A stretch of DNA of 50,627 nucleotides from Nitrospirota bacterium (GCA_016180645.1 JACPAV010000002.1:124001-174627), one strand, 5' to 3'. Positions 445 through 14,645 are shown, counted from the first letter of the stretch. Notes: generated by a model not told the origin, from the sequence alone. Numbers and translations: made by a program.

Positions 445-2109
445 TTACTTCCCCTTCAACTGCTGTTCGACGAGCGACCGCGCAATAACGCGCAGGGCCA
501 ATACTTCCTCCGCGCCCTCGAAAATCGAAAACACCCGTGAGTCCACATAATACCTCGATACATCATACTCCTCCGCGTAGCCCATGCCACCGTGGATCTG
601 CAAGGCCTCCCGGGTCACCCACTCGGAAATCTTTCCCGCGAAGAACTTGACCATCGATCCTTCCATCTGGCCCTTCCCCTCATCGAACATCCGGGCCACG
701 GCGTACGTGAACTGCCGTGACGCCTGAATCAGCATGGCCATCCGAGCCAGTTTGTACTGGGTGAGTTGATAATCAAAGATCGGCAGTCCGAAGACCTTTC
801 GCTCCTGCGAATAGCTGAGCGCCTTCTCGAAGGCGGCCTGCATCACGCCGTTCGCCCGCGCAGCCGTCTGCAACCGGCCGCCGGAGAACCCCTCCATCTG
901 GAGATAGAAACCTTTTCCGAGTCCGTCTTTCTCCCCGATCAGGTTTTCGTTCGGCACGAAGTAGTTATCGAAGTGGAGCTCATAGGAGTGCATGCCGCGA
1001 TAGCCGATCGTCCCGATGGCGCGGCCGGCCACTTTACCGCCGCCCTCCTGCTTGTACTCAAAGTTGTGACCGCTGAACGCCGGTTTTTCCGCCATCAGAA
1101 TGGAAAGCCCGCGATGCTTCTTGGACATGTCCGGATCCGTCCTCGCAAGAATCATCATGATTTCCGCTCGACCGGCAAACGTACACCACATCTTGGCGCC
1201 GTTGATGAGCCAGCCGCCCTTCGTCTGGGTCGCGGCGCATTTCATCGCGGCGACGTCCGATCCGTAGTCGGGCTCCGTCGCCCCGACCGCCACCATCTTC
1301 TCGCCCGAGGCCATCAGGGGCAGCCATTTCTTCTTCTGCGCTTCCGTGCCGCCCTTCAGGAGCGCTTTCGCCAGAATCTCCGGTCGCGTTATGAGACTTC
1401 CAGAGACGCCGAGCGAGCCGCGCGAGAGCTCTTCGGTTACAATCACCATCCCCATGTTGTCCGGTTTATCATCGCTCTGGAAGCCGCCGTACTTTTGCGG
1501 GATGGAGAGGCCGAAACATCCCATTTCAGCCAGCTCCTTGATGATCGGTTCCGGCGTCAATTCATCATGACGGTGCACCTTCTCGGCCACCGCACGAACC
1601 TTGGTATCGGCAAACTTCTTGAAGGCGTCCCGCATGAGCTGCTGCTCTTCCGAGAGACCGTAGCTTCCCCCGCCCCCCCTTTTCCGCAGTTCCTGGGAAA
1701 TCTCCTCATACCTCGACGGCGACTGGGCGGCTTGAAGCTCTTCCGACCTCGGACTCTGAAGGAGGGCGGAGCGTATTTGCGAGTCCGACAAACCAAATTC
1801 GGTGGGGCGCCGGGAAAGCGTCTGCCCGACATCGTGTACTACCTCGGCCGCGAACGTTTCGGCCAACAAGCCTTCGAGACGCCCATCCTCGGAACTCCTC
1901 TGAACGCGGTCGGCGTGTGTAAGGGTGTGCCGCGCGGCCTGAATCTCTGCGCACAGATAGGCAAGGTCGTAGGCGGTCACCTGGTGACGATCGAGCTTGG
2001 GAACGGAGATATCTTTTCCGTCCCTGGCTTCCGCTGCGAGGTGTTTCAAGCCCAGCGTGCAGAGATCTTCAGCGGATTGGACGAGACTCGAAATCGCTTC
2101 CCTGTTCAT
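445..2109 (-). CDS. Acyl-CoA dehydrogenase, (2S)-methylsuccinyl-CoA dehydrogenase (Mcd)-like
   Basis: 554 aa with ACAD motifs (TEPDYGSD, INGAKMWCT, GYRGM, ALQIHGGMGYAEEY, IFEGAEE). The ~150 aa N-terminal extension and GSLITRPEI segment are typical of Mcd. It is adjacent to an Mch-like gene. Confidence 0.8.
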   Translation of the reverse strand: MNREAISSLVQSAEDLCTLGLKHLAAEARDGKDISVPKLDRHQVTAYDLAYLCAEIQAARHTLTHADRVQRSSEDGRLEGLLAETFAAEVVHDVGQTLSRRPTEFGLSDSQIRSALLQSPRSEELQAAQSPSRYEEISQELRKRGGGGSYGLSEEQQLMRDAFKKFADTKVRAVAEKVHRHDELTPEPIIKELAEMGCFGLSIPQKYGGFQSDDKPDNMGMVIVTEELSRGSLGVSGSLITRPEILAKALLKGGTEAQKKKWLPLMASGEKMVAVGATEPDYGSDVAAMKCAATQTKGGWLINGAKMWCTFAGRAEIMMILARTDPDMSKKHRGLSILMAEKPAFSGHNFEYKQEGGGKVAGRAIGTIGYRGMHSYELHFDNYFVPNENLIGEKDGLGKGFYLQMEGFSGGRLQTAARANGVMQAAFEKALSYSQERKVFGLPIFDYQLTQYKLARMAMLIQASRQFTYAVARMFDEGKGQMEGSMVKFFAGKISEWVTREALQIHGGMGYAEEYDVSRYYVDSRVFSIFEGAEEVLALRVIARSLVEQQLKGK

Positions 2110-2209: not shown

Positions 2210-3346
2210 ATGTTGCCCCGCGAGAAGGCGCTCCAGTCGTTACCGGCAAACTCCGATTTCCTCACCGCCGTTCGAGGCTTCCTGAGCCGGGAGGATACTT
2301 CCCCGCTTGGGAAGCTTCTCTGGAAGGTGGGCGAAGGACAAGACCTATTGCTCGATGAGGCGCAGAACGCCGTGCAAGCCATTGTATCCGATGAAGCCAC
2401 CGACCCCCTTCGCGCGGCGTTTCTGGCTGCACTCCAAGCCAAAGGCGAAACCGAGGATGAAATCGCCGCGTTCGCAATGACCATGCGCAATCTTGCATCC
2501 CCTCTGGGGATCGAGCCGTCTGACCGGCTATCCGACACGTGCGGAACCGGGGCGGACGGGGCTTCCACCTTCAACGTGTCGACCGGCATCGTCTTCATCC
2601 TCGCCGCGTGCGGTCTCAAGATTGCGAAGCACGGCAATCGGGCCATCACGTCCAAGTGCGGCAGCGCGGACCTTCTGGAGGCCCTCGGCGCCAAAATCGA
2701 TCTCGAACCAAGCCAAGTCAGGACGTGCCTCGAACAGACGGGTGTAGGGTTTCTTTTCGCTCCCAAATTCCACACCGCCACTCGGAAGGTCATGACCGCC
2801 CGGAAGGAGCTCGCTTCGGCGGGCTGGAAGACCGTCTTCAACATCCTGGGTCCCCTCACCAACCCCGCCCGGCCAGGATGTCAGCTCCTCGGCGTCTTCA
2901 AGCCCGAACTCGTACGTAAGATGGCGGGCGTACTGGCCAGGATGGGCACCCGGAGGGCGGTCGTGGTCTGGGGCGAAGTGGGAGGGGGCAAGGGCATCGA
3001 TGAAGTTTCGATCGTTGGGGCCACGCGTTGCGCGGAGTTGAACGAGAGTCACGAGATTTCGGATTTCAGCGTTGAGCCTCATGCGCTTGGCCTCAACTCG
3101 GCCACGCTTGATCAAATCAAAGGGGGCACACCTCAGGAGAACAAGGACCGGTTGCTCCAGGTTCTTGGCTCAGGCGATCCCCGTCCCATCAAGAATTTTC
3201 TTACCATCAATGCGGCCGCGGGACTCTACGCCTCCGGCAAGGTGAAGTCGCTTCCTGACGGCGCCAAGCTGGCCATGTCCAAGATCGAGGACGGCTCGGC
3301 TCTCAAGAAAGTTCACGAATTTGTGGAGGCCACGCATGCGGCTTGA
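2210..3346 (+). CDS. trpD: Anthranilate phosphoribosyltransferase
   Basis: DTCGTGADG, TFNVST, KHGNRAITSKCGSADLLEALG, FNILGPLTNP and DEVS motifs. The ATG at 2210 is preferred over the TTG at 2171. Confidence 0.93.
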   Translation: MLPREKALQSLPANSDFLTAVRGFLSREDTSPLGKLLWKVGEGQDLLLDEAQNAVQAIVSDEATDPLRAAFLAALQAKGETEDEIAAFAMTMRNLASPLGIEPSDRLSDTCGTGADGASTFNVSTGIVFILAACGLKIAKHGNRAITSKCGSADLLEALGAKIDLEPSQVRTCLEQTGVGFLFAPKFHTATRKVMTARKELASAGWKTVFNILGPLTNPARPGCQLLGVFKPELVRKMAGVLARMGTRRAVVVWGEVGGGKGIDEVSIVGATRCAELNESHEISDFSVEPHALGLNSATLDQIKGGTPQENKDRLLQVLGSGDPRPIKNFLTINAAAGLYASGKVKSLPDGAKLAMSKIEDGSALKKVHEFVEATHAA

Positions 3347-4970
3347 TCGAACGTGTTTCGCGATCCTCATCGCGGCTCTCGCGATGCGGGCGGCTTCTCC
3401 GGTCCAAGCCTACGAACTCGAAGTGCACGGCAGTTACCGGCTGCGCATGCTTGATGCGGATCGCTACCAGCTGGCCGACGACGGCGCCCGCGCCCAGCAG
3501 GCAGGCTGGCGCGAACATCGACTGCGGCTCACGCCTTCCGCAAAAACAGATAAGCTCAAGTTCTTCGGCCAAATCGATCTCTTTTCCGGACAACTCCTCT
3601 TCGGGAGCCACAACAGCCGCGTGGGTGAAGAGTTCGTCCTCGATCCGGATCGGGCCGGAACCAAGGAAATCCGAGTTTCCAAGAATCCCGATGGCACGCT
3701 CACCGATTCGGGCAAGACGGAGTGGATACCCGATGTGATCGACCCCCGCCACTTGTATGTGGAGTACACAAACCCGAGCGTCGGGCTTGTCCGCGTGGGA
3801 CAGATGCCTTCCGACTGGGGCATGGGAATTCTGGCGAACGGGGGCGACCGCGAGCCGCTCTTCGGCACGAACCGATACGGGGACATCAACGACCGAATCC
3901 TTCTCGCCACCAAGCCGCTGAGCAAGATGGGAGGGGGAAAATTCCACCAGAACTTTTACACCGTGGCCGCGTTGGACAGCGTCTATCGCGACGAAAACGC
4001 ATCCGTCAGGGACGGCGATCTCGCGTTCCAGGGCGTCCTCGCGGGTTTCTACCGCGAATACGAAAACATGAGCGGCTTGTACCTCGCAGGGCGCACTCAG
4101 AAGGACGACTGCCCCGATGCCCGCACCCGCCCCTGTGCCAAGTTGAACGTGGTTGCGATCGACACCTATCAGAACTGGATGCAAGAGGGCGACGTTTCAA
4201 GGCAGCAGGTATCCTTCGAAGGCGTGGTCCTCCTCGGCCGGACGACTCGCGTACTTTCCGATCTCGCGAAATCCGGGGCCGATGTCCGTGCCGCGGGATA
4301 TGCCGCCGGCGGATCGTATGAGTATCTCCCGCTCCGACTCACGGCCGCCGTTGAACACGGCTATGCGTCGGGAGACAACAATCCACAGGACGATACCGTC
4401 ACTCGACTCTCCTTCGACCCCGATCACAAAGTCGGCATGATCTTGTACGACGAGGTTCTGTACAACGTCACCGCCCACATGGCCGACAGGGTGGCCGACG
4501 AACTCGGAGCAACCGGTGAAACGGCGGAGACGGCATCCTTGCTGGGCGTGCTCCCGGACTCGATCGCCAATCTCCCCACGAACGGCGGCGTGTCAGGATC
4601 GACCTACGTCTACCCCTCGGTAAAGTACGACTACAAGGTCTGGAGCGGCCATTTTACCCTCAAGGCCGCCTACTTGGCGGCTTGGTTGACGTCAAACTTT
4701 TTCGATCCTCTAAACACGAACCAGCACGGCGGGGTACTCACCAGCCCTTATGGGATCGAGCGCGCGCACAGCTCGCTTGGGCAGGAAATCAACTTAGGCG
4801 CCGAATACGATTTTCATCTTCTCGGGGACATTGGTTTCCGTTTCACCCTCCAGTATGGAACTTACTTCCCCGGCGATGCCTTTCGACAGCCGGACGGTTC
4901 AAACAAGATCCAGAAAGCCGAAGACAGCAAGATCGACAAGGTCGAAGGCCGGTTCACCTTGAAGTGGTGA
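3336..4970 (+). CDS. Putative outer-membrane beta-barrel protein
   Basis: Signal peptide (MRLDRTCFAILIAALAMRAASPVQA), alternating amphipathic strands, G(Y)ASGD and FDPD motifs like alginate-export-type barrels, and C-terminal aromatic ...GRFTLKW. It overlaps the trpD stop. Confidence 0.65.
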   Translation: MRLDRTCFAILIAALAMRAASPVQAYELEVHGSYRLRMLDADRYQLADDGARAQQAGWREHRLRLTPSAKTDKLKFFGQIDLFSGQLLFGSHNSRVGEEFVLDPDRAGTKEIRVSKNPDGTLTDSGKTEWIPDVIDPRHLYVEYTNPSVGLVRVGQMPSDWGMGILANGGDREPLFGTNRYGDINDRILLATKPLSKMGGGKFHQNFYTVAALDSVYRDENASVRDGDLAFQGVLAGFYREYENMSGLYLAGRTQKDDCPDARTRPCAKLNVVAIDTYQNWMQEGDVSRQQVSFEGVVLLGRTTRVLSDLAKSGADVRAAGYAAGGSYEYLPLRLTAAVEHGYASGDNNPQDDTVTRLSFDPDHKVGMILYDEVLYNVTAHMADRVADELGATGETAETASLLGVLPDSIANLPTNGGVSGSTYVYPSVKYDYKVWSGHFTLKAAYLAAWLTSNFFDPLNTNQHGGVLTSPYGIERAHSSLGQEINLGAEYDFHLLGDIGFRFTLQYGTYFPGDAFRQPDGSNKIQKAEDSKIDKVEGRFTLKW

Positions 4971-5284: not shown

Positions 5285-6442
5285 ATGATGACGCCTGATG
5301 AGCGATCTCAGCTCTTCACGCAAGTGGAAGAGCAACTCCGAAAAAATGAGGGCGAGCGCGCATTGGAGGGGTTGGACCGGCTGATCTCAGTCCACCCGGA
5401 AGACCTCTCCCTGCTCTATCTCGCCACCCGCGTCTGCAACGTTCTGGGATGCGAAACCGACTACCGGGACCGCCTCTTCCGGAATGCCGACTGGCCGGAA
5501 ACGGCTCCACCGGTCCCACCTCTCCAATTCCTGGCGCCCGCGACACGCGAGCCGATCCTCTCCCTGGTTACGTCGACCTGGAATAGAGCAAACTCTCTGT
5601 CACGGCTCCTCGACAGCCTCGGTCGGCATACAGGAGCGCCTTTCGAACTCATCGTGTCCGACAACAACAGTGCGGATGGGACCCTTGAAATGCTCGCCCA
5701 ACGGCGCACCACCTTTCCCTGGCTTGGCGCGGTCCTGTTTTCAGGCCATTCCTCCACGCTCGATGCGTATCGCACGGGCACGGAGCGGGCACGGGGGCGG
5801 ATGATCGGATATCTCGCCGATGACCTTGAGGTTGAGCCACACTGGGACCGGCAGATCACGGAAACACTGATTTCAAGATCGGAGGTCGGCATTGCCACGC
5901 CCGTTGTCCTGGATCCCGGCCGTCAGACCGGTTTCCTCGGCTCGTGCGTTCCCTATGTCAGCCGCAGACACCCATGGCTCAATCGCCACGGTACATCGGT
6001 CGCCGCGGACGATTCCACACCCATGTCCGTCACCCTTCCCGATCGTCCGATGGAGGTGGAGGGCGCGGCCTATCCATTCCTCAGGAGGGATCTCCTCACG
6101 AAGGTGCCCATTTTCGACCCCCGCTTTATCCATGTGTGGGACAACGACCTGGCGCTTGAAATGCGCTCCCGTGGATACAGAATCCAAGTCTGCCCGCAAA
6201 GCCGCGTCATCGACCACGATGCTTCGCGCTCCGAAAGCGATGAGCGCCAGGTCGTCCACAGTGAGACGTTCTTCGAAGAACTCTATGCGAATCCGGACCG
6301 GGCGCTATCGCGATTGGCATCGCCGGACAGCCGTCCCATGCGATATCTCCACGACGATTTTCTACTGGAGTGCAAATGGACGGCGTTTAGGGTGGCTCCC
6401 TGTTCCCGTGGCCGACGGAGGGCGTTTCGGGCTACGGGATGA
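5285..6442 (+). CDS. Glycosyltransferase family 2 with an N-terminal TPR-like helical segment
   Basis: LSLVTSTWNR, ELIVSDNNSADGT, ARGRMIGYLADD and FDPRF..WDNDL GT-A motifs. It overlaps the convergent qor by 11 bp. Confidence 0.8.
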   Translation: MMTPDERSQLFTQVEEQLRKNEGERALEGLDRLISVHPEDLSLLYLATRVCNVLGCETDYRDRLFRNADWPETAPPVPPLQFLAPATREPILSLVTSTWNRANSLSRLLDSLGRHTGAPFELIVSDNNSADGTLEMLAQRRTTFPWLGAVLFSGHSSTLDAYRTGTERARGRMIGYLADDLEVEPHWDRQITETLISRSEVGIATPVVLDPGRQTGFLGSCVPYVSRRHPWLNRHGTSVAADDSTPMSVTLPDRPMEVEGAAYPFLRRDLLTKVPIFDPRFIHVWDNDLALEMRSRGYRIQVCPQSRVIDHDASRSESDERQVVHSETFFEELYANPDRALSRLASPDSRPMRYLHDDFLLECKWTAFRVAPCSRGRRRAFRATG

Positions 6443-7406
6443 GGAGGATCTTGCCGGTCGTCTGACGGCCTTCCAAGGCACGGTGGGCCTCGGCCGCCGC
6501 TTTGAGAGGAAACTCCCGGGTCACGGTGAACTTCACCCGCCCGGTCTGCATCCAGTCGAAGACCGCCGAAGAGCGCTCCACCAACTCCTCGCGCTTCGCG
6601 ATGTACCATCCGAGCCCGGGGCGCGTCAGGAACAGGCCCCCGCGGATGCTCAGGATGCTTGGGTCGAACGATTCGACGGGCCCGCTCGACTGGCCGAACA
6701 GGACCATCATGCCCCTGGGTCGGAGGCAGTAGATCCCCTTCGCGAAGGTCGATTGGCCCACTCCGTCGTAAACAACGTGGACACCTTTCCGCTCGGTGAT
6801 ACGTCGAACCTCCTCCTCGAAATCCTGTCGGGTGTAGAGAATAACGTGATCCGCGCCGGCGGCTCTGGCCAACTTTTCTTTCTCCTCGGTGGAGACCGTT
6901 CCAATGACGGTGGCCCCGAGCATCTTTGCCACCTGGCACAGAATCAGACCCATTCCACCTGCGGCGGCATGGACCAGGCATAGCTCGCCCTTCTTCAACG
7001 TGTACGTGGTGTGCGTGAGATAGTGCGCCGTCATGCCTTGAAGCATGGCAGCGGCGCCGAGATTCGAATCGATTCCGGCAGGCCTTCGCACCAAGCGGTC
7101 GGCCTTGACCACTTGATACTCCGCGTAGGCCCCCATCACATTGGTGTAGGCGACGGGGTCGCCTTCGGACCAATCCATCACATCGGGCCCGATTTTCTCC
7201 ACGATCCCCGCCGCCTCCTGGCCCGACGTAAAAGGCAGGTCGGTCTTGTAGAACCCGGTTCGGTAGTAGGTGTCGATGTAGTTGACCCCGATCGCCTCGA
7301 TCTTGACGAGGACCTGGCCGGGTCCCGGCTCGGGCACCGGGATGTCCTCATACGAGAGGACTTCCGGCCCGCCGGTGCGAGCAACACGGATGGCCTTCAT
7401 GGTCAT
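6432..7406 (-). CDS. qor: NADPH:quinone oxidoreductase (zeta-crystallin/MDR family)
   Basis: MKAIRV..GGPEVL, IGVNYIDTYYRTG, LVHAAAGGMG, VVYDGVG, AHRALEGRQTTGKILL. Confidence 0.9.
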   Translation of the reverse strand: MTMKAIRVARTGGPEVLSYEDIPVPEPGPGQVLVKIEAIGVNYIDTYYRTGFYKTDLPFTSGQEAAGIVEKIGPDVMDWSEGDPVAYTNVMGAYAEYQVVKADRLVRRPAGIDSNLGAAAMLQGMTAHYLTHTTYTLKKGELCLVHAAAGGMGLILCQVAKMLGATVIGTVSTEEKEKLARAAGADHVILYTRQDFEEEVRRITERKGVHVVYDGVGQSTFAKGIYCLRPRGMMVLFGQSSGPVESFDPSILSIRGGLFLTRPGLGWYIAKREELVERSSAVFDWMQTGRVKFTVTREFPLKAAAEAHRALEGRQTTGKILLIP

Positions 7407-7423
7407 CCCTTTCTAGCCCAGCT

Positions 7424-7831
7424 CTACTTGCCGTTCAAGGCGGGAGAAAAAGCCACCCTCAGATCTCGATAGAAAAGAACCCAGCCGACCAAGGCGCCAA
7501 CAACATAGGGCCAGAAGATCAACTGAGTGGCGATATCGTGTGGCAGGGCGCCCGTCCACATCGCCGTTGCGCCATGGATACCGATATAGAGGATGGCGCC
7601 ACAGACGATCAGTCCGCTCGCATACGCCCAAGGGCGCTTCTGCCGGATGCCCGCAAGCAACGCCACCAGATTGGCGGTCAGGAACAGGTCCGCCGGAAGG
7701 AACGTCTTGGCATTCCGTACCATCTCAGGCGTCATCTTGTCATCGTAGTAGCCGGTGAAAGTTAGCCACCACCAGATGGGTACATAAACGGCCAATCCCG
7801 CAACACCGATTCCAATGGCCCATTTTTTCAT
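7424..7831 (-). CDS. Small membrane protein (about 4 TM), unknown function
   Basis: ATG at 7831 (MKKWAIGIGVAGLAVYVPIWWW...) follows an AAAGGGG RBS. It has four hydrophobic segments and starts 13 bp after the GRE stop. Confidence 0.7.
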   Translation of the reverse strand: MKKWAIGIGVAGLAVYVPIWWWLTFTGYYDDKMTPEMVRNAKTFLPADLFLTANLVALLAGIRQKRPWAYASGLIVCGAILYIGIHGATAMWTGALPHDIATQLIFWPYVVGALVGWVLFYRDLRVAFSPALNGK

Positions 7832-7844
7832 CGCAAACCCCCTT

Positions 7845-10262
7845 TCATGAGGCTGTGATCCCTTCCGGTTCCCCCTGGCGCCTTCCGTGCACCATTCGGT
7901 CGATGATCTCCTGCTGTATCTCCGGCGCAAGATCGTCGAAGTACGCCGAGTAGCCCGAGACCCGCACCAACAGACCGGGAAACCGGTCCGGGTGATCGCG
8001 CGCTTCCATCAGGACTTTCGGATCGAGCACGTTCACCTGCATCTGCATGCCGCCTGACTTGAAACAACCGTCGATGAGCGCGCCCAACCGTCGGGATCCG
8101 GAATCACCTTCAACCGACCAGGGATCCAATTGCAGATTGAAATTGATCCCATTCCGCGCGACGTGGAGCGGCAACGCGGCCTGAGAGCGTAGGAGGGCTG
8201 TCGGGCCCCGGCGATCTCTCCCGTTCCCGGCCGAAAGGCCGGAGGAGAAAGGATCCCCCGTGCACCGGCCGCTGGGCAGCGCACCCACCTTCCTACCGAA
8301 GGCCACATGCGAAGTTACAGAGTAGAAGCCGGCCACATATTCGCCACCCCGCGTGTTGACCCTGTCCCGAAGGGTGGAATCGAACATTTCCATGACCCGT
8401 CCAACATAGCCATCCGGGAGGGGATCGTCGTTTCCATACTTGGGCGCATTCCGCAGCCGCGCCCGCAGTTCTTCGTAACCGATGAAATTCTTCCGACAGG
8501 CCCGAATCACCTGCCCCAGAGTCGCCTTTTTCTTTTGGAAGACGATCCAATCGATGGCCGCCAGACAGTCTCCCACCTCCACCGCACCGACCCCTTGGAT
8601 GCCGCTTCCATTGTAGGCGGCGCCTCCCTCGGTGGAATCTTTTCCCTTCGCCATGCAGCCGTCGAGCAGCATGGACGTGAGCGGTGTCGGATGCAGGCGC
8701 GCATTGGCTCTCTCGACAGCCTCCAGATCCGCCAGCAGCCGCGCGACTCCCGCGCGGATCTGGGTCTCCAGCAGCCCAAGGAGCGCCTGCATGGATGGAC
8801 AGTTCGCCGCGTCCTGCGTTCTTGCGCCCATCCGACGGAGCCGGCCAAAACGCCTACCGCCATTCAGAGCCAGCTCCATGCACAAAGGCAGATTGAAGAG
8901 TGCCGCATCGGTCGAGAAAAAACTCCTGCCTGCCGCCACCGGCTCCACGCATCCTACATTTGCGTAGTCGCGCGCGTCTTCCACGGCCACTCCTCTCGAC
9001 TTCAAAATCGGAACGATCACTTCGTCGTTGTAGACAGCGGGCGAAACCGCTCCTCCGGCCAGGGCCGAGGCAATTCTCGACCGATACGCTGCCGGACTGC
9101 CCGCGTGGATGCGTGCATGGTAGTTGGGTTGCCGAGTCCGCAGCGCATCCATCAGCTCCAGGAAAAGGAAGGTGACTTCATTCGTCGCATCCCCGCCTTC
9201 CCGATCCGTTCCTCCGACCACCACCACCTGGCCGTTGAACATTCCACCGTGGAAGCGCGTCCCGCGCCGCGAGAAAGCCGGCACGATCTCGCACAGTTTC
9301 ACCGCGAAGCACCCCAAAAGCTCGAAGGCGCCCTCGCGATCCAAGCGGCCTGCTTTCAAGTCGGCCTCGTAGAATGGATGGAGGATCTGATCCAATCGGC
9401 CGGGGCATACGGAGTTGTCCAGCGATTCCAAGTTGAGCGCGATCTGCGCGAAGAGGATCGATTGGAGCGCCTCGTGGAAAGTCGTCGCCGGCCCTCGAGG
9501 TACTTTCCTGCATATCTCTGCAATCCCGTTGATCTCAGCCCGTCGGGTCGGGTTCGATTCATGTTGCGCCTGCGCGAAAGCTGCGGAACGATAACGCTCC
9601 GCGAAGCCGTCCAAGGCGTCACACACCCCCACCACCGCCCGCCAGAAATACTCTTCGCGGGGGCCGATCCCGGCGGCCGCCCGCCGCTTCTCGGCCTCCT
9701 CCCGGTAACCCGCGGTTCCCCGATTCACCAGACCTGCGTAGTCCGGGACGAAGTGCGATATTCCCGCCACCTCGTTGATGAGGTACGATGTCGGATCTCC
9801 CATCTCGGCAAGAAACGGCAGCGACCGCGGGAACGGATGCGCCTTCGTCATCATGATGCGCGAAATCCAGTAGGGCAGCACTTCCGTGAGAAGCCGACGA
9901 CGGGCGGCCCGTGAGATCTGGAGGGGATTCACCTTTCTTTTCGGAAATCGGAACAGATCCTCCATCATCGCCACCCCGTGCAGTTCGGGAAAGAGCTGCC
10001 CCCCGACTCGAAACGAAGTGAAATTCCCCACCAACAGCTCCTGGGGATAAATATGAATCGCTTTGTGCCCCAGGATGTATTCCAGCGCCCCGGCCTTCTG
10101 CAAAATCACGGGATCTTTCGGATCGGCCAAGGTGCGAAAATACCGGGTGACGAGAAACGCACGTTCACCACAGAGTGCGGGAGAGCTTCCCCGAACTTCT
10201 TCGTGGAGACGGCGGACGCGCTGGGTCAGGTTCACACCGACGACGGGTCTCGCGGCGCTCAT
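7845..10262 (-). CDS. Glycyl radical enzyme (PFL2/eliminase-type, substrate unknown)
   Basis: About 805 aa. Cys loop NVGCVEP has a single Cys, unlike the CC pair of true PFL. It also has the Gly loop LVRVSGYSAYF, PKYGND and MQMQVNV. The ATG at 10262 overlaps the activase stop (ATGA). Confidence 0.92.
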   Translation of the reverse strand: MSAARPVVGVNLTQRVRRLHEEVRGSSPALCGERAFLVTRYFRTLADPKDPVILQKAGALEYILGHKAIHIYPQELLVGNFTSFRVGGQLFPELHGVAMMEDLFRFPKRKVNPLQISRAARRRLLTEVLPYWISRIMMTKAHPFPRSLPFLAEMGDPTSYLINEVAGISHFVPDYAGLVNRGTAGYREEAEKRRAAAGIGPREEYFWRAVVGVCDALDGFAERYRSAAFAQAQHESNPTRRAEINGIAEICRKVPRGPATTFHEALQSILFAQIALNLESLDNSVCPGRLDQILHPFYEADLKAGRLDREGAFELLGCFAVKLCEIVPAFSRRGTRFHGGMFNGQVVVVGGTDREGGDATNEVTFLFLELMDALRTRQPNYHARIHAGSPAAYRSRIASALAGGAVSPAVYNDEVIVPILKSRGVAVEDARDYANVGCVEPVAAGRSFFSTDAALFNLPLCMELALNGGRRFGRLRRMGARTQDAANCPSMQALLGLLETQIRAGVARLLADLEAVERANARLHPTPLTSMLLDGCMAKGKDSTEGGAAYNGSGIQGVGAVEVGDCLAAIDWIVFQKKKATLGQVIRACRKNFIGYEELRARLRNAPKYGNDDPLPDGYVGRVMEMFDSTLRDRVNTRGGEYVAGFYSVTSHVAFGRKVGALPSGRCTGDPFSSGLSAGNGRDRRGPTALLRSQAALPLHVARNGINFNLQLDPWSVEGDSGSRRLGALIDGCFKSGGMQMQVNVLDPKVLMEARDHPDRFPGLLVRVSGYSAYFDDLAPEIQQEIIDRMVHGRRQGEPEGITAS

Positions 10263-11185
10263 TCCCACGTGGTGACTTCCAATCCTTTCGATCGGAGATA
10301 CCCAGCCGCCTGCTCCAATGGCCCGGAGCCCCGCGCTTCAGGCGCGAGTGAAAGCGGCTCGATGGGGAATCCCACGCGGGCCAGCTTCGCCTCGCCCATG
10401 GCGTGGTAGCGAAGGAGATGGATACCGACCACGCCGTTCCCACGGAGAAAGGCGGCGATCTCCAATAGGTTCGTCGGATCATCGGTGTATCCGGGCACCA
10501 CCGGCACTCGGAACTGCGTGGAAACTCCCGATTCGATCAGACGCCGGGCATTGGAAAGAATGGCTGCATTGTCGGCCCCGATCACTTCCCGATGCATTTC
10601 AGGGGACATGATCTTCAAGTCGAACTGAATGAATTCAAGGAGGGGAAGATACGGCTGGAAGGCCTCCCATCGGAAGAGTCCGCAGGTTTGGAGCCCGACG
10701 CCGACCCCCACCTCGGCGCAGCGCCGCGCGAAAGCGCCGGCGAATTCCATCTGCAGCGTCGGCTCACCACCGGAAAGCGTAATCCCCCCCCCCGACGAAG
10801 CAAAGAAGGGCCTGTCCCTCGCTACCTCTTCAACCAACTCCTCGATGCCGTACCGCCTGCCAACCACTTCCAGCGCCCCGTGCGGGCAGGCATCTACACA
10901 TACCCCACAGGCATCACACAGTTCCCTCCGGATTCGCGCTTCCATCCGCGTCATCGCGCCTGCCGTGCAGGCGGGAATGCAGTGTGAGGCCTTCCTGCAA
11001 CGGTCTTCCCGAAAAGCCGGCTCAGGGTGGGGACGCAGGGACTCGGGATTCTGACACCAAGGGCACCTTAGCGGGCACCCCTTGAAGAAGACGGTCGTTC
11101 TGATGCCGGGGCCGTCATGAATCGAAAACCGCTGGATGTCGAAGACCACTCCGGTCGCGGTCCCGGCCGTTGAGCCGACCATCAT
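10259..11185 (-). CDS. Glycyl-radical enzyme activating protein (radical SAM with ferredoxin-like insert)
   Basis: IQRFSIHDGPGIRTTVFFKGCPLRCPWCQNPES, a Cys-rich insert (CRKASHCIPAC ... CDACGVCVDACP) and GGITLSGGEP. Confidence 0.93.
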   Translation of the reverse strand: MMVGSTAGTATGVVFDIQRFSIHDGPGIRTTVFFKGCPLRCPWCQNPESLRPHPEPAFREDRCRKASHCIPACTAGAMTRMEARIRRELCDACGVCVDACPHGALEVVGRRYGIEELVEEVARDRPFFASSGGGITLSGGEPTLQMEFAGAFARRCAEVGVGVGLQTCGLFRWEAFQPYLPLLEFIQFDLKIMSPEMHREVIGADNAAILSNARRLIESGVSTQFRVPVVPGYTDDPTNLLEIAAFLRGNGVVGIHLLRYHAMGEAKLARVGFPIEPLSLAPEARGSGPLEQAAGYLRSKGLEVTTWE

Positions 11186-11233
11186 GACCGGCTTCCGGCC
11201 TGGACCGGGAACCGATTCGGTTCGAAAGGGATT

Positions 11234-11268
11234 GCGGGGAGGCTTGGTGGTGAGCCCAAGCCCCCCGC
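11234..11268. terminator. GC-rich hairpin between the phasin-like gene and the GRE activase (weak terminator or mRNA-stabilising stem)
   Basis: GCGGGGAGGCTTGG-8 nt-CCAAGCCCCCCGC, with no clear U-tract on the minus strand. Confidence 0.4.
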
Positions 11269-11281
11269 TCCTTCCGACATG

Positions 11282-11602
11282 TTACTTGCCGACGTTTGAA
11301 ACGATTTCGGAAACGCTGCTGATCAGTTTCTTGGCCTGCTGCTTCGCCGTGGCAATGCCGCGGTTGCGCGCATCGGAAATCGTCTGATAGACCTTGCGGG
11401 CCGATTTGCCCTCGATGCCCGTGATGTCTTCAGCCGTGGAGATGACGCGGTCGGCCGTCTTGTCCACCGTTTCGGACACTTTCTCGGCCAGGTCGAACGC
11501 GCGGTCCGCCACCGTTCTCACGACGTTTTCCGCCTTCTCGACCTGCCCGGAGACTTTTGTTTCGGCCGTTTTCGGCCGGCTGATGCGCTTTCGTGATGCC
11601 AT
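11282..11602 (-). CDS. Phasin-like / PHA-granule-associated amphipathic helical protein (putative)
   Basis: 106 aa, K/A/E/V-rich, Cys- and Trp-free, predicted helical. It has a strong AAGGAGG RBS and is divergent from the phaR-like gene. Confidence 0.55.
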   Translation of the reverse strand: MASRKRISRPKTAETKVSGQVEKAENVVRTVADRAFDLAEKVSETVDKTADRVISTAEDITGIEGKSARKVYQTISDARNRGIATAKQQAKKLISSVSEIVSNVGK

Positions 11603-11725
11603 GTTGAACCTCCTTCGGTTCCCGTCCAATTCGCCTCCAGGGGAAAAAGACTCCTCCACGTCCCCGGAAGGCGGGCTTCCACCCCGGCCATCCTGCCGGC
11701 CTGGGTCCCTTTTGATTCTGCTTTA

Positions 11726-11812
11726 TGTTGCATTGCGACAATTCTGCCATACCCCGGTTTTCTTGTCAAGCCCCCCTTGTTGCAGAGCAACATCCCCTCT
11801 TGCAACGCACCA
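11726..11812. promoter_or_regulatory. Three palindromic TGC-N3-GC(A) operator boxes (putative PhaR sites)
   Basis: TGTTGC-att-GCGACA (11726-11740), TGTTGC-aga-GCAACA (11778-11792, perfect) and TCTTGC-aac-GCACCA (11798-11812). Confidence 0.65.
11741..11769 (-). promoter_or_regulatory. Putative sigma70 promoter for the phasin/GRE unit
   Basis: Minus strand TTGACA (11769-11764), 17 bp spacer, CAGAAT (11746-11741) preceded by an extended -10 TG. Confidence 0.6.
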
Positions 11813-11818
11813 TGCCGC

Positions 11819-11847
11819 TTGCCATTCCCTCGGGAAACCGGTACATT
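11819..11847 (+). promoter_or_regulatory. Putative sigma70 promoter for phaR (likely leaderless transcript)
   Basis: TTGCCA (11819-11824), 17 bp spacer, TACATT (11842-11847). The ATG is at 11854 with no SD sequence. Confidence 0.55.
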
Positions 11848-11853
11848 CTCTTC

Positions 11854-12348
11854 ATGGATGCCATCGTCTTCAAGAAGTACAAGAACAACCGCCGGCTGTA
11901 CGACACGTCGCACAACCGCTACGTCAACCTGGACGAAATCGAGGGCATGGTGCGTCGCAAGAAGGCCGTGCGGGTGGTGGACGCGCAAACCGGAAGGGAC
12001 CTGACGAACTCCGTCCTCCTCCAGATCATCCTGAACCGCGCCAAAGGCAATCCGGCCTCGTTCCTTCCGACCGATTTCCTGAGCCAGCTCATACAATATC
12101 AGGGGAAATCGGTCTTCGATTTTTATCGCAATTTCACGAAAGTGGCCTCCGGCTATCTCTCACGGTTCCACAAGGGTTTTGGGGGGACGAAGAAGATCGT
12201 GGAGGAGGCCCTGGATGAAATCGGGCGGAAGGCGGGTCCCGAGGCTCAGGCGCGATTGGAGCGAATCGCCCTCCAGGAGATCCGTTTCCTGAAGTCGAAG
12301 ATTGCGGGGCTGGAAACCCGGCTGTCGAAGAAGGGGTCGCGGCGTTGA
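11854..12348 (+). CDS. phaR: Polyhydroxyalkanoate synthesis regulator (PHB_acc_N DNA-binding domain)
   Basis: FKKYKNNRRLYDTSHNRYVNLDEI...VVDAQTGRDLTNSVLLQII...LPTDFLSQLI matches the PhaR N-terminal signature. It has a C-terminal coiled coil. Confidence 0.85.
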   Translation: MDAIVFKKYKNNRRLYDTSHNRYVNLDEIEGMVRRKKAVRVVDAQTGRDLTNSVLLQIILNRAKGNPASFLPTDFLSQLIQYQGKSVFDFYRNFTKVASGYLSRFHKGFGGTKKIVEEALDEIGRKAGPEAQARLERIALQEIRFLKSKIAGLETRLSKKGSRR

Positions 12349-12419
12349 CTCAATCTGTTTCTATCGAGCCTAAGCTCGACTTTTGCCATTTTTTGAAAGG
12401 TTTATGTTGGTCCTTATGC

Positions 12420-12478
12420 GTAGGGGAGGGTCTTCAGACCCTCCCGACAAGAGGGAGCATCTGAAGATGCTCCCCTAC
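12420..12478. repeat. GTAG-type REP doublet
   Basis: GTAG-GGGAGGGTC-ttca-GACCCTCCC followed by inverted GGGAGCATC-tgaa-GATGCTCCC-CTAC. Confidence 0.75.
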
Positions 12479-12496
12479 GAATCGGCATTCTGTCAG

Positions 12497-12695
12497 AGGC
12501 TCTGAGCTCGACTTTTGCCATTTTTCCATGCCGTGTGAACATCACTTCACGAGGGAAGGCCATTTCCACGCCGTGAATTTTTAGACAGGAGCCGTTTTCC
12601 GGTCTCGTTTCAAAATTCATCGCTCAGAATCTCGCTCGGATGGGAAGGCATCTTCAGACACCGCTCAAGAATGGCAAAAGTCGAGCTAAGAGCCT
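12497..12695. mobile_element. Putative MITE (about 199 bp) with 26-bp terminal inverted repeats
   Basis: AGGCTCTGAGCTCGACTTTTGCCATT (12497-12522) versus AATGGCAAAAGTCGAGCTAAGAGCCT (12670-12695), one mismatch. A third partial copy of the end is at 12373-12392. There is no transposase. Confidence 0.6.
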
Positions 12696-12707
12696 TTGAG
12701 GTAATGA

Positions 12708-12772
12708 CGCGGGCTGAAGCCCGCGGCTACCGGGAATGTGCGTCCCTGGTAGGCGCAGGCCTTATGCCTGCG
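12708..12772. repeat. GTAG-type REP doublet
   Basis: CGCGGGC-tgaa-GCCCGCG-GCTAC followed by GTAGG-CGCAGGC-cttat-GCCTGCG. Confidence 0.7.
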
Positions 12773-12827
12773 GAAGACGACCACCGGTTCGCCATTCTGT
12801 CAGAGGCTCCAAGCCTCGATTGGGGAC

Positions 12828-14645
12828 TCACATTTCCAAAATTCGGAAGATCTCTCCCCGGTCTACGTATGACCGGGCCTCCATGAAGACCTCCGGCGGC
12901 ATGGCGCTGTAGTTCAGCGGCCGGCCGTCCCGGTTGAAGAGGACTTTCGTCGCATCGTCCAATTGGAGAACGTATTCGTGCAGGGATTCATTGGGCACGG
13001 GTCGACCGGATTCCGGATCGAACTGGACACCAAACTCTTCCTGGAGCACCCGCTTCACATCGGGATCGCCGAACATCTCCGTTCCCGGATAGGCCGTCGC
13101 CGTAAACATGGATTTGTTGACCGCGCGCCGTGCCGCGTAGTGTTCCGGTGAGTCTGTCGCCGCGCCGGCCGTGTAGAACTCTTCCTGCCACTGGATGAAC
13201 GCCACGGTGTTCTTCAGGTCTTCCAAGGTTTCGCCGGGATAGCCCATGATCCACGTGCAATTTCCGTGGATGCCGGCCTCCCGCGTGCGTTTCACCCCCT
13301 CCATCATCGTCACGGGGAACTCGTGGCCCTGCCACCGCTGGGTGCCGTTTGAAAGGATGAACCCACCCTTCCCCATCGCCTCCAGGATCCGTGGGCTGGC
13401 GCTCTCCGCTCCAAAACCGATGTAGGCGCAGCCGGCCTTCGCCATGAGATCGACACGACTGATGGCGTTGCGAACATAGACGGGCCCACCGTGACCGTTT
13501 CGAGCCGGGTTGGGTCGGATATCGGCGGCTTCATCCAAGCGGCCGTGGGTTCCCCAACGCACCCCGGTTCGTTCCAACACGTCCTGCATGGCAGGGACCA
13601 GGTTTTGAATCCGCCGCGGGACGACCATGAAATTGTCATCCGTGATTCCCATGAAATCCAACTTGTATTTCTCCGAAAAGAGGGCGATTTCCTGCGCCAG
13701 GTTTTCCGCCGAACGGACGCCGTAGTTCCGCTCCCCCTGTGCGCCTCGGAAACAGAATTTGCAATCGAACGGGCAGCCGCGGCTGCTCACGGTGGAGAGA
13801 CTCCTGGCCATGGAGAAGGGCGCCGCGGAGCTGTTGCGGGAGCCCCCGCCCCAGATCGGATTGCGGAGGTACGTTTCAAGGACCCGCACGCCGTCGACGT
13901 CCTCCTCCATGAGGTCCCACGCAGGAAATGGGAGTGAATCCAGATCGTCCGGCCGGCCACCGTGATAGGCGAACCGAGGCTGACCATCCGCCGTGCACTC
14001 CATGAAGTACGGCTCAAGCTTCCCGCTCAATACGGCCGCTTTCACTCCCACGGCGCGGATCAACTTCGCGTCGTAGGCCATTTTGAGAATGGCGTCGTCC
14101 CCTTCCGAATGGCATACGGCATTCAGTTCCGGGATCCATCGAAACAAATCCTCGCGGAATTCCGTGGCGAGGCCGTTACCGGTGGCCAGGATCGCGCGCG
14201 GTTGAATGCTTCGGATCACCCGGGCCAGATTCTCCTGCCAGCGGAGGGTGGTGATGAGTCCAGAGAAGGCGATGAGGTCCTGATCGCCATGCCTGTCGAG
14301 GTACTTCGCAATCAGCGCCTCGGCTTCCGCAAGCGACAGATGGCGGCCCGCGCCGGGCGACTTCGCGTAGGCGAGAGGTTGGCCCACGGGATCGAACTGT
14401 TCGTGAGTCGTAAGTCGTAAGTCGGAAGTCGGAAGACGATACGCGTTGAGATCCACGATGACGGGGATTGCGCCGAACTGACGGAGCCGTGCCGCGAGGA
14501 GGGCGGGACCGAGCGGGGCGACGTTCGGCGGGGCGCTTTCCCGCAGGGGCATGTTGATGAGCATGACCCTCGCGCCCTCCACGTCACCGGGGGAGAGCTG
14601 ACTTACGACGGCCCCAGGGTGAGTGTACGAGCCCCGGGTGTGCAT
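12828..14645 (-). CDS. Cobalamin-binding radical SAM protein (class B methyltransferase-like)
   Basis: N-terminal APLGPALLAARL B12-domain-type motif, LDSLPFPAWDL, SRGCPFDCKFC (CxxxCxxC), DDNF, IGFGAES and IMGYPGET. Confidence 0.85.
   Translation of the reverse strand: MHTRGSYTHPGAVVSQLSPGDVEGARVMLINMPLRESAPPNVAPLGPALLAARLRQFGAIPVIVDLNAYRLPTSDLRLTTHEQFDPVGQPLAYAKSPGAGRHLSLAEAEALIAKYLDRHGDQDLIAFSGLITTLRWQENLARVIRSIQPRAILATGNGLATEFREDLFRWIPELNAVCHSEGDDAILKMAYDAKLIRAVGVKAAVLSGKLEPYFMECTADGQPRFAYHGGRPDDLDSLPFPAWDLMEEDVDGVRVLETYLRNPIWGGGSRNSSAAPFSMARSLSTVSSRGCPFDCKFCFRGAQGERNYGVRSAENLAQEIALFSEKYKLDFMGITDDNFMVVPRRIQNLVPAMQDVLERTGVRWGTHGRLDEAADIRPNPARNGHGGPVYVRNAISRVDLMAKAGCAYIGFGAESASPRILEAMGKGGFILSNGTQRWQGHEFPVTMMEGVKRTREAGIHGNCTWIMGYPGETLEDLKNTVAFIQWQEEFYTAGAATDSPEHYAARRAVNKSMFTATAYPGTEMFGDPDVKRVLQEEFGVQFDPESGRPVPNESLHEYVLQLDDATKVLFNRDGRPLNYSAMPPEVFMEARSYVDRGEIFRILEM

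Follow-up and report, generated by a model that had tools for sequence, protein, structure and literature searches.

A PhaR-family regulator, paired putative operators and a glycyl radical enzyme gene row in a Nitrospirota genome

Genes and regulatory features of the locus

We analysed a stretch of 50,627 nucleotides (hereafter the window; G000:C31:124001-174627) from the genome of a Nitrospirota bacterium (G000; 4,716,505 bases, 97% complete), in which a PhaR-family regulator gene diverges from a row of five minus-strand genes that includes a glycyl radical enzyme (GRE) and its activating enzyme. Two palindromes bracket the promoter of the first gene of the row, a small orphan gene, and the block running from these putative operators into the GRE recurs at another place in a sister genome (G001; 84% complete). 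G000 and G001 are the only genomes of the phylum in the collection searched. An initial annotation of the locus had described the gene row and its gap sizes, the divergent phaR-like gene, the hairpin at 11234–11268 and the palindromes, all of which we reproduced; recomputed from open reading frame (ORF) coordinates, the gaps are 96, −4, 13 and 17 bp. The stretch is present in four DNA runs, all from one groundwater-metagenome study. The features, in window coordinates, are:

6432–7406, minus strand: qor-like medium-chain dehydrogenase/reductase (MDR), last in the row, 17 bp after tm4; ADH_N and ADH_zinc_N domains
7424–7831, minus strand: 135-aa predicted membrane protein ("tm4"); four transmembrane segments read by eye from the sequence
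7845–10262, minus strand: GRE of the CXE (eliminase/isomerase) type; PFL-like 531.8 bits, Gly_radical 88 bits
10259–11185, minus strand: GRE-activating radical SAM enzyme (activase), overlapping the GRE start by 4 bp; TIGR02494 301.6 bits (cut-off 174.35)
11187–11216, minus strand: second predicted stem-loop, over the putative activase ribosome-binding site, in the minimum-free-energy structure of 11186–11290
11234–11268, minus strand: strong GC-rich hairpin (predicted fold) just after the small gene; terminator, attenuator or mRNA-stabilising element
11282–11602, minus strand: orphan small gene for a 106-aa protein ("phasin-like" in the initial annotation); ATG preceded by GGAGG
11603–11734, minus strand: 5′ leader of the small gene, about 125–130 nt, conserved with the GRE-linked copy in G001 (L100:2153-2281)
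11726–11740, no strand: putative operator O2, TGTTGCATTGCGACA; TGTCGC-AAT-GCAACA on the small-gene strand, one base after the −10 hexamer
11741–11769, minus strand: sigma-70-type promoter of the small gene; TTGACA, 17 nt, TG-CAGAAT; 10/12 consensus positions, extended −10
11778–11792, no strand: putative operator O1, TGTTGCAGAGCAACA; perfect palindrome TGTTGC-N3-GCAACA, 8 bp upstream of the −35
11819–11847, plus strand: promoter-like site of the phaR-like gene; TTGCCA, 17 nt, TACATT; 9/12 consensus positions
11854–12348, plus strand: gene for a 164-aa PhaR-family regulator; PHB_acc_N DNA-binding domain and a divergent C-terminal half

O1 and O2 both read TGTYGC-N3-GCAACA, with their centres 52 bp apart. 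The TGTYGCNNNGCRACA pattern has two exact sites in the whole of G000, both of them here, and none in a reversed-sequence control; sites with one mismatch are not enriched (27 versus 35 in the control). For the phaP1 gene of R. eutropha, PhaR sites are described directly upstream of the −35 and around the transcription start site, and the motif deduced there, YTKNTGCRNYGCANMAR, has a TGC-N3-GCA core (PMC12849132). A comparison set of 24 distant metagenomic phaR loci (33–54% identity to the regulator) carries TGCTGC-N3-GCAGCA about 80–110 bp upstream of phaR in 22 cases. Because the core and the positions agree with phaP1 and 22 of the 24 phaR loci have a box of like architecture, the architecture of O1 and O2 appears to be of the PhaR-operator type, with the outer bases altered; the initial annotation's view of the palindromes over the small-gene promoter as PhaR-type operators is thus upheld, as far as core and placement can tell.

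The PhaR-family membership that had been proposed for the regulator is likewise confirmed by its match to PHB_acc_N (PF07879; 82.7 bits, cut-off 25). Translation probably starts at 11854 (MDAIVFKKYKNNRRLYD), which aligns with the start of an orthologue in G001 that is 61% identical. The promoter-like site in front of the gene, a consensus match, would yield a nearly leaderless mRNA. A second PhaR paralogue occurs in both genomes (G000:C57:106019-106669, L097:9017-9670; G001:C30, L099:9295-9912) and is 80% identical between them. It consists of PHB_acc_N fused to a C-terminal Phasin (PF05597) domain, and adjoins a DctP solute-binding protein and a PlsC/DAGAT-like acyltransferase. The canonical TGCTGC-N3-GCAGCA box has no site in the whole of G000, and the second paralogue is therefore left without an operator that we can assign.

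The small protein has no Pfam or NCBIfam family above cut-off. Its AlphaFold model (mean pLDDT 77.9) has helices at residues 18–61 and 66–105 behind a basic, disordered N-terminal tail; Foldseek against the PDB gave nothing at E ≤ 0.001, merely generic helical hairpins, and the protein Atlas offered a Phasin_2 cluster at rank 11 (score 0.83). Profile searching of 1.84 billion representatives found four credible members of the family, the fourth of which (P0004) sits on a 4.6-kb Logan contig, and the small-protein alignment, used in a metagenome scan, brought up no relative. A longer GTG-initiated ORF reaching up to 11659 was judged unlikely, the ATG having GGAGG in front of it. For the 5′ leader, the consensus fold predicted from two sequences has 24 pairs, 2 of them compensatory. 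The leader matches no Rfam family, and a search of window positions 6000–13000 with Rfam gave nothing beyond a chance-level RNase_MRP fragment (E 0.32).

The GRE has all the elements by which the class is recognised: a PFL-like barrel, a C-terminal glycine radical domain with the RVxG[FWY] motif, a catalytic Cys loop and a cognate activase, the last with Radical_SAM, Fer4_12 and Fer4 matches and a ferredoxin-like insert at residues 55–110. Among solved structures, A. fulgidus PFL2 (2f3o, E 1.5e-152) and glycerol dehydratase (GD; 1r8w, E 2.9e-136) come closest to it, and in the alignment to both of these its motifs RVSGY and GCVEP are present. According to a 2026 review, the CXE motif marks GRE 1,2-eliminases and isomerases, and in GD Glu435 deprotonates the C1 hydroxyl while His164 protonates the leaving hydroxyl (PMC13450708). 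Counted on the 1r8w alignment, the equivalents of GD His164, Ser282, Cys433, Glu435 and Asp447 are kept. GD His281 aligns with Asn and Tyr339 with Gly, and hence the predicted pocket differs from that of GD. Judged by these residues, the enzyme is catalytically intact and of the CXE eliminase/isomerase type. None of the characterised functions searched with curated cut-offs (GD, PD, HypD, CutC, HpsG/HpfG, IslA, PFL, decarboxylases and X-succinate synthases) was reached. The GRE scores under the subfamily cut-off of TIGR01774 (615.7 versus 678.2) and under each equivalog cut-off (HpsG, the best, 464.3/1000; HypD 432.4/1100; CutC 428.4/1050; PFL 416.7/1109). PFL2 itself is called a GRE of unknown function in the same review (PMC13450708), and an alkylsuccinate-synthase role proposed for it is reported second-hand in PMC5992423.

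The block in the sister genome and GRE homologues elsewhere

In G001 the window's arrangement is divided between two contigs. Contig C33 carries an activase and a GRE that are 61% and 70% identical to those of the window, preceded by a copy of the small gene (54% identical), on a different contig from phaR. DNA homology with the window starts 17 bp before O1 and runs from 11809 to 7902, the GRE ORF ending about 60 bp further on, at 7845. The flanks of the C33 block are unrelated to those of the window: upstream lie an integrase fragment, a tm4 homologue and another membrane protein, and downstream a convergent gene. The integrase-core (rve_3) fragment stands at the contig start (L100:1-309), and a PAS histidine kinase and a sigma-54 response regulator are encoded downstream of the GRE (L100:7266-10182).

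Contig C83 carries the orthologous regulator, divergent from the gene for a 107-aa homologue of the small protein (42% identity), and its regulator-side flank matches the window's (B12-radical SAM protein, 492-aa flavoprotein and NeuB). Its small gene is followed by genes for a nitroreductase, a 4Fe-4S ferredoxin, a 263-aa unknown protein and a 703-aa amine oxidase (L098:4348-8603). A tblastn search of G000 found no match for the ferredoxin, the 263-aa protein or the amine oxidase, and just a distant match on another contig for the nitroreductase (33% identity, C28). Immediately after the amine-oxidase set comes a Phd/PIN toxin-antitoxin pair. By identity, the small protein of the window is nearer to the copy beside the GRE (54%) than to the one beside phaR (42%).

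TTGACA, the promoter spacing, both operators and the 52-bp distance between them recur at each of the three small-gene promoters, and the O2 sequence is identical throughout. Paired boxes at this spacing occur in G001 only at its two small-gene promoters; the four other exact box sites in that genome are single, three of them inside genes and one between convergent genes. On this comparison, everything from the promoter and operators through the small gene and hairpin to the activase and GRE behaves as a single block. In G000 it adjoins phaR, and in G001 it stands elsewhere and would be regulated in trans. Because the block recurs in G001 in another context, far from phaR, a functional unit under PhaR-like control is supported. 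One half of the initial annotation's central claim, that a GRE is wired into a PhaR-controlled unit, gains from the retention of operators through GRE at a different place in G001; the other half, a link to polyhydroxyalkanoate (PHA), is not supported, for reasons given below.

A pattern scan with one genome per species gave at least 94 relatives of the GRE, and the best 80 of these (46–70% identity) were analysed with their flanks. The relatives are spread over metagenome-assembled genomes (MAGs) labelled Desulfobacterota/"Deltaproteobacteria", Myxococcota, Spirochaetota and Acidobacteriota, and many hosts carry the names Smithella, Syntrophaceae or Desulfobacteraceae. By tblastn the activase is just upstream in about 61 of the 80 loci; 18 have none, several of these loci being truncated, and one has a distant weak match. 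The 7,873 ORFs of the 80 loci were searched with profiles of PhaR, of the small protein and of tm4. PhaR was found in none (0/80), and the small protein and tm4 in one locus each (1/80), in both cases that of G001 itself. The wiring to PhaR would therefore seem to be specific to this lineage. The initial annotation had proposed a neighbourhood check of GRE homologues for phaR, phasin and membrane-protein genes, and among the 80 loci this gave no linkage apart from that in G001. A metagenome scan with the PhaR alignment gave distant PhaRs only (33–54% identity), none with a GRE nearby.

The neighbours that GRE homologues do have include histidine kinases (12 loci), GntR/FadR regulators (10), ABC ATPases (9), acyl-CoA dehydrogenases (6), CoA ligases (6) and, in one locus, an AtuA/biotin-carboxylase set; further regulators beside them are of the TetR, MerR and LuxR types. 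These neighbours are heterogeneous. The acyl-CoA dehydrogenases and AMP-forming CoA ligases are at loci L003, L006, L019, L061, L076, L081, L007, L021, L063, L079 and L080, with L003 and L006 also holding carboxylase or AtuA genes, and they give hints of acid or lipid catabolism for the clade.

The tm4 protein has no Pfam or NCBIfam match and received only a DUF8058-like lead from the protein Atlas; its homologue in G001, 32% identical, stands upstream of the GRE block (L100:985-1428). A tm4 paralogue in G000 (C42:23748-24086, L132:5560-6117; 38% identity) has toxin-antitoxin-like genes (HepT-like, BrnT) as neighbours, with a fumarate-reductase-type flavoprotein and Fe-S subunit nearby. The qor-like protein scores 321.7 bits against the NADPH:quinone reductase model NF008024, under its cut-off of 348. 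It is not beside the GRE in G001, and MDR matches in the GRE-homologue loci are few (4/80) and weak (25–29% identity), so that the linkage of qor to the GRE suggested at first finds no backing.

Elsewhere in the window, the right-hand 38 kb (12828–50627) form a large sugar-nucleotide/NeuB glycan biosynthesis island with a B12-binding radical SAM protein, NeuB, several epimerases/dehydratases, DegT aminotransferases, glycosyltransferases, methyltransferases, a SPASM radical SAM protein and MptE-like proteins. On the left lie a gene for a 554-aa acyl-CoA dehydrogenase with an N-terminal extension of about 150 aa (445–2109, minus strand) and one for a TIGR04551-family/alginate-export-like protein (3321–4970, plus strand).

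Possible read-through, termination and the inducing signal

We lean, with somewhat better than even confidence, towards a form of the PhaR/phasin switch that is particular to this lineage and works in an organism with no detectable PHA synthase; in it the GRE would be co-induced by attenuated read-through. From the sequence architecture and the comparisons above, the PhaR-family protein most likely acts as a repressor at the small gene's strong sigma-70 promoter through O1, upstream of the −35, and O2, at the transcription start site; it probably represses its own divergent gene too. Our best guess for the activase and GRE, and then tm4 and the qor-like gene, is expression by attenuated read-through past the hairpin from the PhaR-controlled promoter, which would yield much of the small protein and little of the radical enzyme, the two being induced together. 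The GRE probably abstracts a hydrogen next to a hydroxyl and cleaves a C–O or C–N bond in a hydroxylated substrate larger than glycerol, and the qor-like reductase may reduce the carbonyl product. As no PHA synthase is detectable, the inducing signal would not be PHA; it could instead be a different hydrophobic body, or a ligand of the regulator's divergent C-terminal half.

The 105-nt stretch that holds the hairpin (11186–11290, minus strand) has a predicted folding energy of −54.5 kcal/mol (z = −4.8), which none of 200 shuffled sequences equals. A clear U-tract (UUUCUGUU) follows only the C83 copy of the hairpin. A missing U-tract was dropped as a mark of a weak terminator or of read-through, since among the 598 gene ends analysed in G000 only about 8%–9% of strong post-stop hairpins have at least four T in the next 8 nt, and this rarity is alike at convergent and co-directional gene ends. 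Because strong post-stop hairpins in G000 so rarely have U-tracts, standard intrinsic-terminator scans are uninformative for this lineage. We put read-through co-regulation of the GRE genes from the small-gene promoter at roughly even odds; besides the block structure, the operon-like gaps of −4, 13 and 17 bp further along the row count in its favour.

Several observations weigh against the switch that we favour. As the absence of a U-tract is uninformative in G000, the 11234–11268 hairpin could be a full terminator, and a very stable hairpin with a differing stem sequence follows all three small genes. The C83 copy precedes an unrelated nitroreductase set, and for this reason genes that follow the small gene do not have to share its function. 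PhaR is missing from every one of the GRE-homologue loci, and the comparative support comes from two related genomes, the whole phylum in the collection, which are not independent of each other. On the protein side, the regulator stays under the cut-off of the PhaR equivalog TIGR01848 (75.4 versus 109.45 bits), with PHB_acc_N the only part reported by Pfam at E ≤ 0.001 and the PHB_acc C-terminal domain not reported. The small protein matches Phasin_2 (PF09361) over nearly the whole profile at 18.1 bits (E 0.0031), under the cut-off of 24.9; the C33 copy reaches 13.4 bits and the C83 copy has no match. The small gene as a phasin, as first annotated, is accordingly not sustained by this sub-threshold match. 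Finally, the PHA-synthase negative has limits of its own, set out below.

Plain juxtaposition without co-regulation is an alternative that we regard as possible but doubtful: the regulator would control the small gene and itself only, the hairpin would be a full terminator, and the genes from activase to qor would answer to an unrelated signal through a promoter of their own that escaped recognition. The hairpin is strong and, since G000 gene-end hairpins usually have no U-tract, resembles an ordinary terminator; the phaR-linked copy in G001 is followed, beyond a hairpin, by unrelated genes; GRE homologues elsewhere sit beside other kinds of regulator (histidine kinases in 12 loci, GntR/FadR in 10, and TetR, MerR and LuxR types), and a histidine kinase and a sigma-54 activator lie just downstream of the G001 GRE. 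Yet no sigma-70-like site is predicted in the 96-bp gap between small gene and activase, the block inherited or moved between the genomes spans operators to near the GRE stop, and the small gene stays with activase and GRE in two different genomic contexts. It seems to us very unlikely that the small protein serves the GRE as accessory subunit or chaperone, like the small subunits of benzylsuccinate synthase or HPAD, and is not a coat protein. Activase and GRE are always adjoined by the small gene in both genomes, and its family is as rare as the gene arrangement; however, the small protein has no cysteine motif for an Fe-S cluster, a paralogue in G001 keeps company with phaR and the nitroreductase set far from any GRE, and the other 79 GRE-homologue loci lack it.

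The initial annotation had the GRE carry out an anaerobic radical reaction of PHA or hydroxyacyl metabolism and come on once PHA accumulates and its granules titrate PhaR. The PhaR-family regulator, the PhaR-like operator architecture and the weak Phasin_2 signal speak for this, as do the acyl-CoA dehydrogenases (6), CoA ligases (6) and carboxylase/AtuA set near some GRE homologues and the acyl-CoA dehydrogenase at 445–2109. Against it, there is no PHA gene in the window, PhaR is in 0 of 80 GRE-homologue loci, and neither G000 nor G001 has a match to the PHA synthase models PhaC_N (PF07167), TIGR01836 (class III) or TIGR01838 (class I), which together leave class I/II and III/IV enzymes undetected in both, or to PhaE (PF09712). 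The three synthase models each rang in a control genome, while the PhaE model rang in none, and G001 is 84% complete. A full-text literature search on PhaR, polyhydroxyalkanoate and glycyl radical enzyme gave nothing relevant (one unrelated review). With no PHA synthase in either genome and no PhaR beside GRE homologues, the proposed link to PHA or hydroxyacyl metabolism is not supported, and we consider this reading very unlikely. Both genomes do encode a WS/DGAT wax-ester/triacylglycerol synthase (G000:C54:91207-92019, 240.7 bits; G001:C59:17751-18560, 234.5 bits), and neutral-lipid bodies are therefore conceivable; a full-text search on PhaR, phasin and wax ester returned nothing relevant (an unrelated paper only). 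A more specific form of the preferred switch is a long shot: the re-purposed PhaR/phasin-like pair would sense a non-PHA hydrophobic body or substrate phase, and read-through past the hairpin would turn on a GRE eliminase for a lipid-derived hydroxylated compound under anoxia. If true, this would be the first storage-body-gated radical enzyme.

Significance and comparison with known systems

The locus suggests that the PhaR/phasin switch extends beyond PHA producers, and it provides a fully specified operator-promoter pair whose two boxes are unique in the genome. The switch is physically tied to a widespread GRE clade without an assigned function (at least 94 relatives), whose closest solved structure has been one of unknown function since 2006. 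If the coupling is real, knowing what induces the switch would give a lead to the physiological role of this clade; if it is not, the locus would still be a PhaR-like regulon with two operators private to it, in a phylum that has hardly been sampled.

Among characterised enzymes, GD (1r8w) and PFL2 (2f3o) share with the GRE described here a full-length GRE fold, the glycine motif, the CXE Cys loop, the equivalents of GD His164, Ser282 and Asp447, and an activase with a ferredoxin-like insert. Unlike them, the GRE falls under all equivalog cut-offs and that of TIGR01774, and has Asn and Gly in place of GD His281 and Tyr339.

The nearest regulatory parallel is PhaR-phaP1 of R. eutropha, with which the locus has in common PHB_acc_N, TGC-N3-GCA palindromes upstream of the −35 and at the transcription start site, a small helical target (here predicted) and a regulator gene beside its target. 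It differs in that no PHA synthase was found, the regulator is under the TIGR01848 cut-off with no PHB_acc C-terminal domain reported, the target belongs to no recognised phasin family, and a GRE unit lies downstream. The outer operator bases also differ, being TGTYGC here and TGCTGC in 22 of the 24 phaR loci. For a storage-body switch that does not involve PHA, the closest functional analogy is the MLDS/MLDSR system of Rhodococcus jostii, in which, as described in PMC5504291, the regulator recognises the operator that controls the operon of a small and abundant lipid-droplet coat protein, and the lipid droplets, as the storage body, sequester and titrate the regulator. The likeness is one of switch logic, by analogy, and we claim no sequence relationship between the two systems.

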